Positions 5,341-39,803 of a stretch of DNA of 50,934 bases are shown piece by piece. Numbering within the stretch: position 1 is the stretch's first letter; each line of letters opens with the position of its first letter. The notes beneath the pieces are model-generated. The model was not told where the DNA came from, ran no database searches, and saw only the letters and a program-made list of their open reading frames with translations. Position numbers and translations under genes: made by a program. This stretch comes from Chloroflexota bacterium (lineage in GTDB: Bacteria; Chloroflexota; Limnocylindria; Limnocylindrales; CSP1-4), in NCBI GenBank assembly GCA_021790715.1, contig JAJYGK010000038.1:1-50934 (forward strand), written 5' to 3'.

Positions 5341-6567
5341 TCACCGCAGAGCGACGGCCGGCGTCCGCTCCTCGAGCGCGTGGTGGATCCCGTAGCGGTC
5401 GAGCAGCGCGATGTACGGGTCCGGGTCGAATGCCTCCGGACCGAGCACGCCCTCGCCCCTCCACGCGCCCTCGGCGAGCAGTTCCATCGCAAGCACCGGG
5501 TTGAAGCCGGTCTGGTAGCCCACGACCTGCAGCCCATGGCGCCGCATCGTCTCCTGCGCGTCGGACGTCTGGTACAGGTAGACCTCCCGCGGCCGGCCGT
5601 CCCGCAGGCCCGTCACCTGCGTCCCCACGATCGCGAGCCCGACCATGTGGTCTCCCACCGTGGCCGGATCGGGCGTGAGCGCCGCGACGACGTCGCGAGG
5701 CGCCACCTCGACGCCCTTCACCCGGATGCGGTCCTTGCGATCGAGCCCGATCGCGTGGAGCGTCCGCAGCGTCTCGATGAACTCGCTGCCGAGCGCGTAC
5801 TTGAACGTCACCTTCCGCGCGTCGATCCAGCGCGGGACGAGCAGCACCTCCTCGTGCTCGACGTGCACGCACTCGACCGGGCCGACGCCCTCGGGGAAGT
5901 CGAACATCTCGGGCTCGGCGAACGGCTCGACCGTGTACCAGCCCCGGTCGCGCTCCCAGATCACGGGCGGGTTCAGGCATTCCTCGATCGTCGTCCAGAT
6001 CGAGAAGACGGTCGCGAACGGGTAGCCCTCGATCGCCAGGCTGCCTCCGTCGCGGATGTTGACCTCGTGCACCTCGTCGAACAGGTGCTTCGCCGCGTAC
6101 GCGGCGAAGACGTCCGACAGGCCGGGGTCCATCCCCATGCCGACGAGGGCGAGCCGCCCCCGCTCCTTCCAGGCGGTCGCGCGGGCGAACTGCGCGTCGC
6201 CCAGCTTCACGCCCGTCAGGCGGTACGGATCCGTGGGGTGCGGTTCGGACAGGCTGACCGCCATGTCCATGTAGTCGACGCCCGCATCGAACGCGCCGTC
6301 GAAGACCGGGACCAGGAACTGCGGGTCGACGGCGTTCATCACGAGGTCGACGCCGTGCTTCCGGGCCAGTCCCGCGACCTGCGAGGCATCCGACGCGTCG
6401 ATCCGCTCGGCGGCGAAGACGCGCTCGTCACCGGCCTCGGCGGCAACTCGCCGGGCACGATCGAACGCGTAGTCCGAGACGATCATCCGCTCCAGCCACG
6501 GCCGCTTCGCGCTCAGCTTCGCGATGGACTCGCCGACCGTGCCGGCGCCCACCAGCAGCACCTTCAT
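5341..6567 (-). CDS. saccharopine dehydrogenase-family NAD(P)-binding oxidoreductase
   Basis: Track ORF of 408 aa. Sequence reads [16 protein letters not shown] (Rossmann GxGxxG) ...[12 protein letters not shown]... A GGAGG lies 8 nt upstream of the ATG. Confidence 0.88.
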
Positions 6568-6616
6568 CGAAACGCCTCCACTCCGATCTCCGTCGCCTCA
6601 CGCGCAACTGGCGACG

Positions 6617-6625
6617 AGTATCGCA
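6617..6625 (-). promoter_or_regulatory. candidate extended -10 (TGCGATACT) for the saccharopine dehydrogenase-family gene
   Basis: The reverse complement of 6617-6625 reads TGCGATACT, in a locally AT-richer spacer about 50 nt upstream of ATG 6567. Confidence 0.3.
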
Positions 6626-6727
6626 CCCACATGGCGGATATGGCGCGCTATTCGTCGTTTGGCGTGGATCGTGCCGATCTCGCGGCGAGCGCCACGCGCC
6701 CGCGGCAGCGAACGTCGTGGCGGCCCG

Positions 6728-8302
6728 TCACGCCAGCCCGTCGGCGAGCGGCAGGGGCTCCTCGGGCGAGGCCATCTGCGGCTCCGTCCAGGTCTCCGGT
6801 GCTCGCCGGAAGAACGCCGGCTGGTACAGGTACTGGAGCAGCATCAGCACGATGCCGACCACCATGAGGACCACCGTGATCACGAGCGGGGGCCCGAACC
6901 CGAACCAGGACACCGCCGAGTAGGAGTTCTCGGGGTTCGCCATGTCGAGCATCGACTGGGCGAACGCCCAGGTGAGGATGACACCGCCGGCCAGCGGGGC
7001 GAGCCCCATGAACACGAGGTTGCGCCAGTTCCGCAGCAGCACGTGGCGGTAGTAGATCGCGCAGGCGTACCCGGTCAGGCCGTAGTAGAAGGCGATCCAC
7101 AGGCCGAGCGCCCAGATCGCGTCCTGGAAGAGGTTCTCCGACAGGAGCTTGAGCGCGACGTACCAGGCCACCGACAGGACGCCCATCCAGATCGTCGACG
7201 AGGTCGGCGTCTGGAAGCGCTCGTGGACGCGCGCCCAGTACGCCGGCAGGGCGCCCTTCGCGCCCATCGAGAGGGCAGTCCGCGCGGTGGGCAGGATCGT
7301 CGTCTGCGTCGACGCCGCCGCGGAGCTGAGGACCGCGATCACGAGCAGCTTGTCCCACGGCGTGCCGAGCACGTCGCTGGCCAGCGCGCCGAGCACGTCC
7401 TCCTCGCCGAGGTTCGAGAGGAACCCGGCGCCGTGGTACGCCTGCGCCGCGACCGACACGATCACGTACGTGCCGAGCAGGATCACGGTCGAGAGCAGCG
7501 ACGCGCGGCCGGGCGTGAGATGGCTGTTCGCCGTCTCCTCGTTGACGGCGGCGGCCGTGTCCCAGCCCCAGTAGATGAACAGGGCCACGATCATCCCCGC
7601 CGCCAGCGCACCGGGCCCGGCGATCGCGAACGGGTTGATCCAGTCGAGCGAGGGCAGGACGGAGCCCTCGACCGTCGACGTGTAGATCCTGACGAGCGCG
7701 ACCACCGAGAAGAGCGCGAGCGTGGCGAGCTCGGCCGACAGCAGGACGACCTGGGTGCGCGCCGAGGCCTCGATCCCCACGTAGCAGATCGCGGTCAGCA
7801 CGGCGATCCACAGGATGCCGAGGCCCATGATCGATGCCGTCTCGAGCGAGACCTGCTGGCCGAGGAGCGTCAGCGAGCCGAAGGTGGCCGGATCGATGTC
7901 GAACAGGCGGAACGTGTAGACGGCGGCGACCTCGGCCAGGCTCGCCATGACGACGATGTCGGCGACGATGATCGCCCAGCCGGTGATCCACCCGGCCCAC
8001 GGCCCCATCGCCCGCGTCACCCACGTGAAGCTCGTGCCGCAGTCCGGGTCGGCCCGGTTCATGTAGTAGTAGGCGGCCGCGATGAAGAGCATCGGCACGA
8101 ACGAGATGAGCATCACGGCCGGCGACTGGAGGCCGACCGCGGCGGTCACCAGGCCGAGCGAGACGGCCAGCGAGTAGGCGGGAGCCGTCGACGCGACACC
8201 GATGACCGTGCTGGAGACGATGCCGAGGACACCACCCCGCAGTCCCTTCTGGCCGGGATCCCCCGGCGCCTGCATCGGGTATGCGCCCACGGTGGTGCTC
8301 AT
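6728..8302 (-). CDS. APC-superfamily amino acid/polyamine permease
   Basis: This is the C-terminal 524 aa of read-through track ORF 6728..10075, starting at ATG 8302-8300 ([11 protein letters not shown]...). It has about 12 hydrophobic segments. GAGGAGGG lies just upstream of the start. Confidence 0.9.
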
Positions 8303-37358: not shown

Positions 37359-37391
37359 GGGAAGGGCCGCCCCGGTCGGGCGGCCCTTCCC
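37359..37391 (-). terminator. 14-bp perfect GC-rich stem-loop between the HAD gene and the Gfo/Idh/MocA genes
   Basis: GGGAAGGGCCGCCC (37359-37372), loop CGGTC, then GGGCGGCCCTTCCC (37378-37391). There is no U tract on either strand. Confidence 0.5.
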
Positions 37392-37434: not shown

Positions 37435-38112
37435 CTACGCGGGCCGGGCCGCCACCGGCAGCCCGAGTCGCACGAGGTCGTGCCGCAGCGTCGCGGGATC
37501 GGCGAAGCGGAGCGCGACCATGCCCAGTGCCGCAGCGACGGCGACGTTGGCGGGGGAATCGTCGACGTACACGGTCGTCGACGGCTCGAGCCCGTGGCGA
37601 TCCAGCAGCGCGCGGAACATCGCCGGGTCCGGCTTGATCGTGCCGAGCTCGCCGGAGATCACGATGTCGTCGAACCACGACAGGAACGCGAAGTGCAGGC
37701 GGGCGATCGGGAACTTGGCGGCGGACCAGTTGCTGAGCGCATAGATCGGGAGACCGGCGCCGCGCAGCTCGCCCAGGACGTCCACGGTCCCGCGGATCGG
37801 CCCGCCGAGCATCTCCTCCCAGCGGCGGTCGAATGCGACGATCAGGTCGCGCGACTCCGGGTGGCGGGACGCGAGCTCGGCCACCGCCTCGTCCCACGGA
37901 CGCCCGGCGTCCTGCCGGGCGTTCCACTCCGGGGTGCACACCTCCGACAGGAATCGCTCCATGGCCGCCTCGTCGCCGGCGAACAGGCGCCGGTACAGGT
38001 GGCGCGGATCCCAGTCGATCAGGACGCCGCCCAGGTCGAAGACGGCCGCCGTGATCGGGACCCCGGACTCCGTCGCGCGCACTCGACCCGTCGTGCGGAC
38101 GCGATCCGTCAT
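37435..38112 (-). CDS. HAD-superfamily hydrolase, subfamily IA (YihX-like phosphatase fold)
   Basis: Track ORF of 225 aa. Motif I is AAVFDLGGVLIDW, followed by LSNWS and VYVDDSPANV. ATGA overlap with the upstream DUF3037 stop at 38109-38112. Confidence 0.85.
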   Translation of the reverse strand: MTDRVRTTGRVRATESGVPITAAVFDLGGVLIDWDPRHLYRRLFAGDEAAMERFLSEVCTPEWNARQDAGRPWDEAVAELASRHPESRDLIVAFDRRWEEMLGGPIRGTVDVLGELRGAGLPIYALSNWSAAKFPIARLHFAFLSWFDDIVISGELGTIKPDPAMFRALLDRHGLEPSTTVYVDDSPANVAVAAALGMVALRFADPATLRHDLVRLGLPVAARPA

Positions 38113-38627
38113 GCAGGGCCGCCCGGCGCGTCGCAGGCCGGCGTGGCGACGAGTTCGTCGAACAGGTGTCCGAGTGTCGCGGCGGGATCGTCGGTGAGCC
38201 CGGTGTGGACCTCCGACCGCTGGACGACGGTGCTGCTCGGCGAGGCCAGCCAGTGGAAGCGCTCGGGCTTCGCCATCCGGGCGATCGGGCCGGCCGACGC
38301 GTCCCCGGCGGCGACACGGACGATCGCGTCGAGCTGGGCGCGCACCTCGTCCGCATCGCAGTCGGGCGAGAGGGCCGCCAGGCGGGCGGCGTCCAGGTGG
38401 GCGCGCGCCCCCAGGAACCGCAGCGGGCGGGACCAGAGCACGATGCCGGCGTTGATGTACTCGCCGCGCTCGACGCGGGGGACCACCCGGAGCACCACGT
38501 AGGCGAACGGGCTGCGCGCGGATGCGAGCGCGCCCCGCGCACGGGCGGGGGCGACTGCCGGGTCGGGGGCGGCTGCCGGTTCCCGGGACGGGGCCTCCTT
38601 CGCGGACCTACGCGGCGAGGCGCCCAC
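38109..38627 (-). CDS. DUF3037 domain protein
   Basis: The C-terminal part of track ORF 38109..38831 reads FAYVVLRVVPRVERGEYINAGIVLWS...FHWLASPSSTVVQRSEVH, matching the DUF3037 signature as I remember it. The proposed start is GTG 38627-38625, preceded by GAGGAGG, 20 nt inside the kinase gene. Confidence 0.7.
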   Translation of the reverse strand: MGASPRRSAKEAPSREPAAAPDPAVAPARARGALASARSPFAYVVLRVVPRVERGEYINAGIVLWSRPLRFLGARAHLDAARLAALSPDCDADEVRAQLDAIVRVAAGDASAGPIARMAKPERFHWLASPSSTVVQRSEVHTGLTDDPAATLGHLFDELVATPACDAPGGPA

Positions 38628-39387
38628 GATCGGCCTCCTCCACGAACGCGCGCGGCGCCGCGAGGCGGCGCTCGATGTAGTCGACGTAGGCGCGGCGGTG
38701 GGCAGCGGCGTCCGGCAGCCCCGGTTCTGCCGGGAGCCACTCGTCCGGGACGCCGGCCAGGATCGAGGCCAGCAGCGCGCGATCCAGCCGCGGCGCAAGG
38801 CGTTCGTCGGCGTCGCGGATCGCGGACGCATACGGGAGCAGGACGTGGTCGCGGCTCTGGGGGAACGGCCGCCCGGCGTGGACGATCGCGTCCCGCCAGG
38901 TGTGGTGGATGTACAGCGCGGAGCCGTGGTCGATCAACCAGAGGCGGCGGTGCCACACGAGCAGGTTGGTGTTGCGGGCCGTGCGATCGACATTCGTGAG
39001 GAGGGCATCGAACCACACGACGTCTGCCGCCAGGTCCGGGTCCGGGACGAAGCCCGCGGCCGGATCGAACCCGAGCGCCCCGGGCAGGAAGTCGAGGCCG
39101 ACATTGAGGCCGGCGCTCCGGTCCAGGAGATCGCGGATCTCGGAGTCGGGCTCCGCCGACGCGAGCGCGGGATCGAGATCGACCAGCACGAGCTCCGGCA
39201 CGAGCAGGCCCAGGGCACGGCCGATCTCCCCGGCCACCAGCTCCGCGACGAGCGCCTTCGTGCCGTGTCCGGCGCCGCGGAACTTGACCACGTACAGCCC
39301 GTCGTCGTCCGCCTCGACGATCGCGGGCAGGGAGCCGCCCTCGCGGAGCGGGGCGACGTAGCGCGTGGCGGTCACGAGGCGGGACAT
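38608..39387 (-). CDS. HipA-like / PI3-4-kinase-fold protein kinase family protein
   Basis: Track ORF of 259 aa. Sequence reads RYVAPLREGGSLPAIVEADDDGLYVVKFRGAGHG, then catalytic-loop-like NVDRTARNTN and metal-binding-like LIDHG. Confidence 0.75.
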   Translation of the reverse strand: MSRLVTATRYVAPLREGGSLPAIVEADDDGLYVVKFRGAGHGTKALVAELVAGEIGRALGLLVPELVLVDLDPALASAEPDSEIRDLLDRSAGLNVGLDFLPGALGFDPAAGFVPDPDLAADVVWFDALLTNVDRTARNTNLLVWHRRLWLIDHGSALYIHHTWRDAIVHAGRPFPQSRDHVLLPYASAIRDADERLAPRLDRALLASILAGVPDEWLPAEPGLPDAAAHRRAYVDYIERRLAAPRAFVEEADRGRLAA

Positions 39388-39393
39388 GCGGAG

Positions 39394-39399
39394 AGTCTA
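39394..39399 (-). promoter_or_regulatory. candidate -10 (TAGACT) giving a leaderless kinase mRNA
   Basis: The reverse complement of 39394-39399 is TAGACT, followed by 6 nt (CTCCGC) and then ATG 39387. There is no Shine-Dalgarno. Confidence 0.4.
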
Positions 39400-39444
39400 G
39401 GGGACCGCGGCGGGTCCGCAGGCCCGCCCGCGGCCGAGAGCGGC

Positions 39445-39490
39445 GTGCGGCCCACCGGTCCGTGCGGCCACCGGCCGGTGCGGCCGGCGA
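39445..39490. repeat. three direct repeats GTGCGGCC(C)(ACCGG), period 16-17 nt
   Basis: Copies start at 39445, 39462 and 39478. They lie 58-103 nt upstream of the kinase ATG. Confidence 0.8.
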
Positions 39491-39509: not shown

Positions 39510-39803
39510 CTACCGGGCAGGCGCCGATCCGGGGCGCTCCTCGAGTCGCCCGGCGAGCCGCCCGATCGCCTCCGCGCGGGCCGCCGGATCGCGCCCAGCG
39601 AGCGCCAGGCCGAGGAGGAACGACGTGATCGGGGCGGCGATCCGTTCGCTCCGGTGCGCCGCGATCCGCGCCATCTCCAGCAGCGCACGCTGCTCGTCGC
39701 GCGTGACGACGGGCGCCTCCGTGCCGGCCGCCACGAGCTCGTCGCGCACCGCGTCGAGCCACTCGTCGAGTCGCAGCCCGCCGGACGTCTCCGAACGTTC
39801 CAT
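39510..39803 (-). CDS. small DUF6457-like protein (family seen near molybdenum-cofactor genes in actinobacteria)
   Basis: ATG 39803-39801 inside track ORF 39510..40040, with GGGGGA 7 nt upstream. Sequence reads LRLDEWLDAVRDELV...ALLEMARIAAHRSERIAAPITSFLLGLALA. The family call is from memory and needs an HMM check. Confidence 0.6.
   Translation of the reverse strand: MERSETSGGLRLDEWLDAVRDELVAAGTEAPVVTRDEQRALLEMARIAAHRSERIAAPITSFLLGLALAGRDPAARAEAIGRLAGRLEERPGSAPAR

Follow-up and report, generated by a model that had tools for sequence, protein, structure and literature searches.

Genes and signals at the locus

The window analyzed here is a 50,934-nucleotide (nt) stretch of a Chloroflexota metagenome-assembled genome (MAG) (assembly GCA_021790715.1, contig JAJYGK010000038.1). 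Within it, three genes on the minus strand (37435-39387) encode a HipA_2-family kinase, a DUF3037 protein, and a HAD-family hydrolase. The locus is a short-form variant of a kinase/DUF3037 pair with a lineage-specific HAD passenger. Its genes and signals are listed below with the evidence for each, and all coordinates are window positions.

38608..39387, minus strand: HipA_2-family kinase gene, 259 amino acids (aa); Pfam PF20613, PADLOC PDC-M66A, AlphaFold2 (AF2) model, fold matches, motif conservation
38109..38627, minus strand: DUF3037 gene, 172 aa, GTG start; Pfam PF11236, PADLOC PDC-M66B, AF2 model
37435..38112, minus strand: HAD-IA (variant 3) hydrolase gene, 225 aa; Pfam PF00702, TIGR01509
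38634..38640, minus strand: Shine-Dalgarno-like GAGGAGG within the 3' end of the kinase gene; sequence reading
39394..39399, minus strand: -10-like hexamer TAGACT, 6 nt from the kinase ATG; sequence reading, TANNNT comparison
37359..37391, minus strand: GC-rich hairpin with a perfect 13-bp stem, about 45 nt past the HAD stop; RNA folding
39510-39803, minus strand: DUF6457 gene, 97 aa, upstream of the kinase across a 122-nt gap

The window lies on a 100.6-kb metagenomic contig, ENA ERZ27236914 k141_631846, where separate gene calling returned the identical three genes and the identical 20-nt overlap between kinase and DUF3037. The DUF3037 open reading frame (ORF) extends 20 nt over the 3' end of the kinase gene, with the kinase stop codon inside it, and GAGGAGG lies 6 nt upstream of the DUF3037 GTG (38627). 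At the second junction, ATGA (38109-38112) is both the DUF3037 stop and the HAD start. An earlier note on this DNA, made from the letters alone, had described three chained minus-strand genes with this overlap, GAGGAGG element, and shared ATGA, and every one of these was located where it had been reported. For comparison, one genome per GTDB species was scanned for relatives of the kinase, yielding 80 related loci with kinases at 58 to 87% identity. The ATGA junction recurs in one of them (L001), and the overlap of HAD start and DUF3037 stop in both places indicates that the three genes share a transcript and are probably translated together.

By sequence reading, the kinase start lacks a Shine-Dalgarno sequence, and TAGACT ends 6 nt before its ATG. 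A TANNNT hexamer was found at the equivalent offset upstream of the kinase start in 35 of the 80 loci, despite a GC content of about 74%. The variants TAGACT, TACACT, TACGCT, and TAGGCT end 6 to 7 nt ahead of the kinase start codon, and most of these loci lack a Shine-Dalgarno sequence there. These observations make a leaderless kinase transcript, as the earlier note had proposed, plausible, and suggest that high-GC Chloroflexota may usually transcribe this gene in that form. TAGACT is a candidate promoter of a leaderless transcript, which we infer from reading the sequence and comparing the loci. The generic scans for promoters (sigma-70) and terminators made no call in this 74% GC region, and the hairpin downstream of the HAD gene escaped the terminator scan because it has no T-tract. 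The RNA fold of the 101-nt stretch holding this hairpin was -63.2 kcal/mol (z -5.4 versus shuffles), and the hairpin is probably the terminator that marks the end of the transcription unit.

The sole Pfam match of the kinase was HipA_2 (PF20613; 65.5 bits against a cutoff of 27, E 5.5e-18, aa 13-223), and the PADLOC model PDC-M66A also matched (76.9 bits, E 3.4e-22). The protein has a Gly-rich loop, REGGS (S19), an ATP-binding lysine, K35 (VVKF), a catalytic loop, NVDRTARNTN (aa 132-141, nt 38965-38994; D134-R-T-A-R-N139), and a metal-binding LIDHG (aa 151-155; D153). Across 30 diverse homologs, S19 and K35 were invariant, and D134, R135, N139, N141, I152, D153, H154, and G155 were at least 90% conserved; the visibly frameshifted entries in this set (P0194, P0264, P0185, and P0189) deviate at these positions. 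With this degree of conservation at the motif positions named in the earlier note, the kinase does look catalytically competent.

The AF2 model of the kinase had a predicted local distance difference test (pLDDT) score of 95.9, and its best PDB fold matches by Foldseek were CtkA, PI4KII-alpha, Fam20C, and Shewanella HipA. The HipA/PI3-4-kinase fold predicted from the letters was supported by the PF20613 match, the AF2 model, and these matches to atypical kinases. Searches with the kinase sequence (phmmer and a profile search) matched no solved HipA or HipT structure, so the structural link to HipA rests on the fold search. The prediction that this is not a canonical hipBA pair also agrees with the gene order, as the upstream gene on the same strand encodes the DUF6457 protein, which is not HipB-like.

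The second protein matched Pfam DUF3037 (PF11236) with an E value of 3.7e-40 over aa 43-160, and matched PADLOC PDC-M66B (E 4.9e-10) over profile positions 4-129 of 281. Its DUF3037 domain comprises residues 39-161 (nt 38145-38513) and was modeled by AF2 with pLDDT >90. Residues 1-38 form a low-confidence Ala/Pro-rich extension of about 32 to 38 aa (38514-38627), modeled as disordered, which is unusual, as most homologs have none. The extension belongs to the protein, because no in-frame start nearer the domain than the GTG at 38627 spares the conserved N-terminus. Alignment of 25 DUF3037 homologs revealed 35 invariant columns, many of them polar, including the stretch SPSST...SE..HTG. Compared with the PDB, the DUF3037 model gave no significant fold match (best E 0.46, to HORMA proteins, probability 0.08). 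A HipS-like, HipB-like, or other known fold was considered for this protein and rejected, as no PDB fold, sequence, or profile match was found.

Some close DUF3037 homologs are 288 aa long (P0288 and P0352; for example L085, 8001-8867) and carry an extra C-terminal domain of about 155 aa. This domain matched nothing in Pfam, the PADLOC PDC-M66B C-terminal region, or the PDB. Because the 288-aa form shares synteny with a 133-aa form (L082), the domain must have been gained or lost recently.

The HAD gene was assigned by PF00702 (63 bits against a cutoff of 26.4, E 6.3e-17) and TIGR01509 (59.1 bits against 29.4). The profile searches that the earlier note had called for identified the three proteins as HipA_2, DUF3037, and HAD. 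The HAD protein fell far below every equivalog cutoff, and its nearest PDB relatives are generic HAD-IA proteins acting on small molecules.

Conservation of the kinase/DUF3037 unit

The 80 loci span Chloroflexota, Acidobacteriota (Pyrinomonadaceae, Blastocatellia), Cyanobacteria (Microcoleus), Proteobacteria, Myxococcota, and Abditibacteriaceae. The clade is therefore present in at least five phyla; it also occurs in Bacteroidota, and many of its members come from soil. More than 8,000 database proteins match the kinase, and the best 120 of these are 71 to 100% identical to it and mostly 258 to 260 aa long. In all 80 loci a DUF3037 ORF lies immediately downstream of the kinase on the same strand, either abutting or overlapping it, which bears out the statement in the earlier note that DUF3037 is often encoded beside this HipA-like family. 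The partner is a short, DUF3037-only protein in 72 of the 80.

The junction between the two genes is conserved as well. In most loci the conserved DUF3037 N-terminus starts 1 to 10 nt before the kinase stop, which means that the DUF3037 start codon overlaps the kinase gene. Overlaps of 17 to 23 nt were found in four other called loci, including a Bacteroides copy whose kinase is 52% identical to that of the window. The recurrence of these overlaps identifies translational coupling as a trait of the family.

No third gene shows comparable linkage. Crude ORF clustering of the flanks of the 80 loci returned nothing beyond lineage-level synteny, and the synteny with FdhD and Gfo/Idh/MocA genes is limited to the closest relatives. 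The HAD gene directly follows the pair in only three loci (L001, L002, and L009, all among the closest relatives); it is absent from that position in the other 77, many Chloroflexota among them. In the loci that carry it, HAD identity is 66 to 68%, versus 79 to 87% for the pair. In L001, DUF3037 is 79% and HAD 66% identical to the window copies. The gene-neighborhood comparison suggested in the earlier note therefore upheld the kinase and DUF3037 genes as a unit (80/80) and removed the HAD gene from it (3/80). The conserved unit is two genes, and the HAD gene is a late, local addition to the operon in a small Chloroflexota lineage, whether as passenger or as accessory.

HAD-IA enzymes are mainly small-molecule phosphatases, not protein phosphatases. 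The window protein resembles Escherichia coli YihX, an alpha-D-glucose-1-phosphatase, in belonging to the HAD-IA family and in a near end-to-end alignment (E 1e-8). Motif I of YihX has the form FDLG, with the second Asp missing, as it does in the window HAD. However, several other HAD-IA proteins match the window protein equally well or better, and it is not a YihX ortholog because it scored 43 bits on the YihX model (NF006991), for which the cutoff is 295. The HAD family assignment in the earlier note stands; its YihX-like label does not extend to orthology.

The nearest genomic relatives of the window are Chloroflexota MAGs (labeled "uncultured Chloroflexia" or Limnocylindrales), at odds with the actinobacterial host in which phage challenge had been proposed. 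Several sequences in the comparison needed separate treatment. In L009, the closest relative (87%), the kinase frame lies in a 420-aa ORF (6001-7263) and the match covers residues 1-206 only; this frameshift is either a pseudogene or an assembly error. Apparent kinase-DUF3037 fusions were rejected. Eight of 10 long representatives of 50%-identity clusters carry both domains, and out-of-frame Arg/Pro-rich stretches mark them as frameshifted metagenome ORFs. Most of these "fused" representatives (P0130-P0268) are affected, and none was used as evidence of interaction. A "Terriglobales" homolog (P0058) was likewise discounted as a case of cross-phylum transfer, since its contig, which is probably mis-binned, matches Chloroflexota-like contigs in gene order. 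On a 4.5-kb contig labeled Terriglobales (L088, GCA_035776605.1), the order PolX, unknown, HipA_2, and DUF3037 (288 aa) is the same as in the ENA metagenome contigs L085 and L086, whose synteny extends the PolX-to-DUF885 synteny of L082; L088 may be mis-binned, which makes it a weak indication of transfer between phyla.

Relation to described systems

The earlier note took the kinase/DUF3037 pair to be undescribed, a claim that did not survive comparison with published work. The pair is already PADLOC candidate PDC-M66, and homologs have been tested as DS-6/HipAD (PMC13092281) and beside Retron-Sda1 (PMC12548924). The window locus very probably belongs to this HipA_2/DUF3037 family and reveals no new kind of system.

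DS-6, or "HipAD" (DefensePredictor), protects E. coli against phage, and the catalytic mutant DS-6A D139A loses defense; AlphaFold3 predicts a DS-6A:DS-6B complex and, more weakly, DNA binding by DS-6B (PMC13092281). That paper traces HipAD to a study of E. coli prophage-encoded defense systems (Brenes & Laub 2025, as described in PMC13092281). In the Retron-Sda1 operon, deletion of the HipA-like kinase abolished defense against phage Bas51, deletion of the DUF3037 gene was toxic, and the retron parts were dispensable, results from which the authors take the kinase to be a toxin that DUF3037 neutralizes (PMC12548924). The toxin-antitoxin or anti-phage role guessed at in the earlier note agrees with this published model, as far as distant homologs may be taken as a guide.

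Comparison with DS-6 used DS-6A (WP_000389051.1) and DS-6B (WP_000210934.1) as given in the supplement of PMC13092281. Both systems place the kinase first and overlap it with the DUF3037 gene (by 4 nt in DS-6), and the kinases are of similar size (249 aa in DS-6A, 259 aa in the window). DS-6A and DS-6B match the HipA_2 and DUF3037 Pfam families and the same PADLOC models (PDLC04766 and PDLC04767), on which the window kinase outscores DS-6A (76.9 versus 53.2 bits). The Gly-rich loop, Lys, DRxxxN, and IDH motifs line up between the two kinases, with DS-6A D139 corresponding to window D134, and parts of the SPSST...SE..HTG stretch (SST, SE) can be discerned by eye in DS-6B. The systems differ in domain content and setting. 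DS-6B covers PDC-M66B positions 6-271, whereas the window protein covers only 4-129 of 281 and has an N-terminal low-complexity extension. The window operon also has the extra HAD gene, and its setting is ordinary chromosome in a Chloroflexota MAG, whereas HipAD, by the account in PMC13092281, came out of a prophage study.

The Retron-Sda1 pair, the source of the mechanistic model, shares the kinase and DUF3037 genes with the window. It differs in that its DUF3037 protein's C-terminal region resembles a type III-A1 retron DNA-binding protein, and in that it is part of a retron operon; annotation of the called genes up to 10 kb on each side of the window kinase shows neither a retron reverse transcriptase nor a retron noncoding RNA.

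More distant similarities connect the pair to HipA systems generally. HipBA and HipBST, as surveyed by Gerdes et al. (2021, PMC8262856), share with the window kinase the HipA-like fold and the layout of catalytic motifs; HipT, HipG, HipI, and HipJ are short core kinases that likewise lack HipA N-subdomain-1, and hipIN and hipJS encode a putative antitoxin downstream. None of the organizations listed in the consulted passages of that survey is HipA_2/DUF3037. The window differs from HipBA in lacking a HipB helix-turn-helix gene, having instead DUF6457 upstream and DUF3037 downstream, and its kinase is 259 aa, compared with about 440 aa for full-length HipA with its N-terminal subdomains. It differs from HipBST and HipJS in that the DUF3037 model matches no HipS, HipB, or other solved structure. 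The best structural match of the kinase was Helicobacter pylori CtkA (PDB 3AKK/3AKL; Foldseek E 1e-6, TM score 0.55-0.62), but CtkA is only 15 to 17% identical and is a secreted pro-inflammatory kinase without a DUF3037 partner.

Proposed function and competing explanations

Homology to the validated pairs, the invariable linkage and coupling of the two genes, and the intact catalytic apparatus together lead us to infer that the window's clade acts as a toxin and its neutralizer, with a probability of about 0.55. The kinase would be a growth-arresting Ser/Thr toxin that phosphorylates an essential cellular protein, and DUF3037 would bind the kinase and keep it inactive, with coupled translation holding the two in step. 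Stress, most plausibly phage infection, would free the kinase and arrest growth of the cell. The HAD enzyme would not be needed for this core mechanism. As most partners in the clade are bare DUF3037 proteins, binding and control of the kinase would fall to this domain alone, and the variable C-terminal domains found in other members would be optional regulatory or sensing add-ons. In tested partners the C-terminal domain (DUF1829-like in DS-6B) is putatively DNA-binding. The window protein has no such domain, so any autoregulation or sensing through it would be absent or achieved in another way.

Several observations weigh against a defensive toxin. Similarity to the tested systems is low: the kinase is 25% identical to DS-6A (E 8e-13), BLASTP gave no significant match between the window DUF3037 protein and DS-6B, and the 275-aa DS-6B includes a DUF1829-like C-terminal half that the window protein lacks. 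Kinase identity of 58 to 87% across phyla, with near-uniform length, is unusual for a defense gene. The kinase and DUF3037 of syntenic L001 (83% and 79% identical) are conserved on a par with its flanking housekeeping genes (FdhD, 78%; Gfo/Idh/MocA, 78%). Neighbors in the window are metabolic (FdhD, molybdopterin oxidoreductase, Gfo/Idh/MocA, and 2-oxoglutarate dehydrogenase), there was no defense island or prophage at the inspected loci, and the GC content of the locus is no different from that of its flanks. Searches of the phage collection and of IMG/VR viral contigs found no relatives of this clade, and on these null results and the lack of a GC signal a mobile or viral origin of the clade was rejected. 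Finally, the 35 invariant DUF3037 positions, many of them polar, suggest by their number and character that the protein may do more than inhibit passively.

Apart from the low similarity to the tested systems, these features, together with synteny that is stable within lineages, favor the main rival to a toxin/neutralizer pair, in which the short-form clade forms a regulatory pair that was domesticated or never served defense. Its kinase would control growth, dormancy, or a stress response in normal physiology, with DUF3037 as its regulator or main substrate. A broader version would make the clade a widespread physiological kinase-partner signaling unit for growth or dormancy, in which DUF3037 presents the SPSST...SE..HTG surface as substrate or allosteric partner and the HAD enzyme has been recruited to reset the system. 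We consider the regulatory pair possible but doubtful, and the broader version unlikely. Gene neighborhoods differ between lineages with no third partner conserved, as is typical of autonomous transferable modules, and the tested homologs are toxin/neutralizer defense systems (PMC12548924, PMC13092281). In addition, identity tracks taxonomy poorly, with many Chloroflexota copies no closer to the window than those from Proteobacteria, Myxococcota, and Acidobacteriota, which suggests horizontal transfer.

The earlier note had instead proposed a three-gene module in which the HAD enzyme reverses phosphorylation by the kinase, either of DUF3037 or of a small molecule. The ATGA junction in the window and L001, the adjacency of HAD to the pair in L002 and L009, and the hairpin that closes the unit past the HAD gene all fit such a cycle. 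It is nevertheless improbable, and the claim was set aside, given that HAD is missing from 77 of 80 loci, is less conserved than the pair it would serve, and is a generic HAD-IA variant-3 enzyme whose nearest solved relatives act on small molecules. The weakest rival makes the kinase a metabolite or lipid kinase with DUF3037 as accessory subunit. It draws on the fold matches to PI4KII-alpha and other atypical kinases, on the small-molecule type of HAD in the same operon, and on the metabolic neighbors. The best fold matches, however, are the protein kinases CtkA, Fam20C, and HipA, tested family members act as toxins (PMC12548924, PMC13092281), and no metabolic neighbor is conserved across loci, which together make this role very unlikely.

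HipA_2/DUF3037 pairs have been validated as anti-phage systems only recently, and this minimal, highly conserved clade provides a test case both for the role of DUF3037 and for whether all such pairs are defensive. Should minimal pairs function as DS-6 does, control of the kinase needs no more than the DUF3037 domain, and the variable C-terminal domains are accessories; otherwise the family also has a role outside defense. Either outcome would clarify a new branch of HipA-type kinases.

Beyond the window, the pair has varied surroundings. Its neighbors in other loci include Nramp, MgtE, GGDEF, and PolX genes, and the only mobile-element gene at the inspected loci was one IS110 transposase about 5 kb away (L085/L086). 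The plasmid collection gave seven matches, and the one inspected (Bacteroides) lay among ordinary polysaccharide-utilization and sugar-metabolism genes. The DUF6457 gene, which stands between the divergent FdhD/molybdopterin-oxidoreductase genes and the kinase, has a counterpart only in L002 and probably goes with the FdhD unit, not with the kinase.

Both proteins do have distant relatives encoded by phages, as PHROG 3162 and 5137 and as fold matches in BFVD. Phage proteins of 125 to 287 aa with the DUF3037 fold (BFVD A0A6G5YJM1, A0A516KZK0, A0A6J5NRF1, and A0A516KTX2; Foldseek E 5e-4 to 5e-3) indicate that phages encode DUF3037-like proteins, possibly as parts of carried systems or as decoys.

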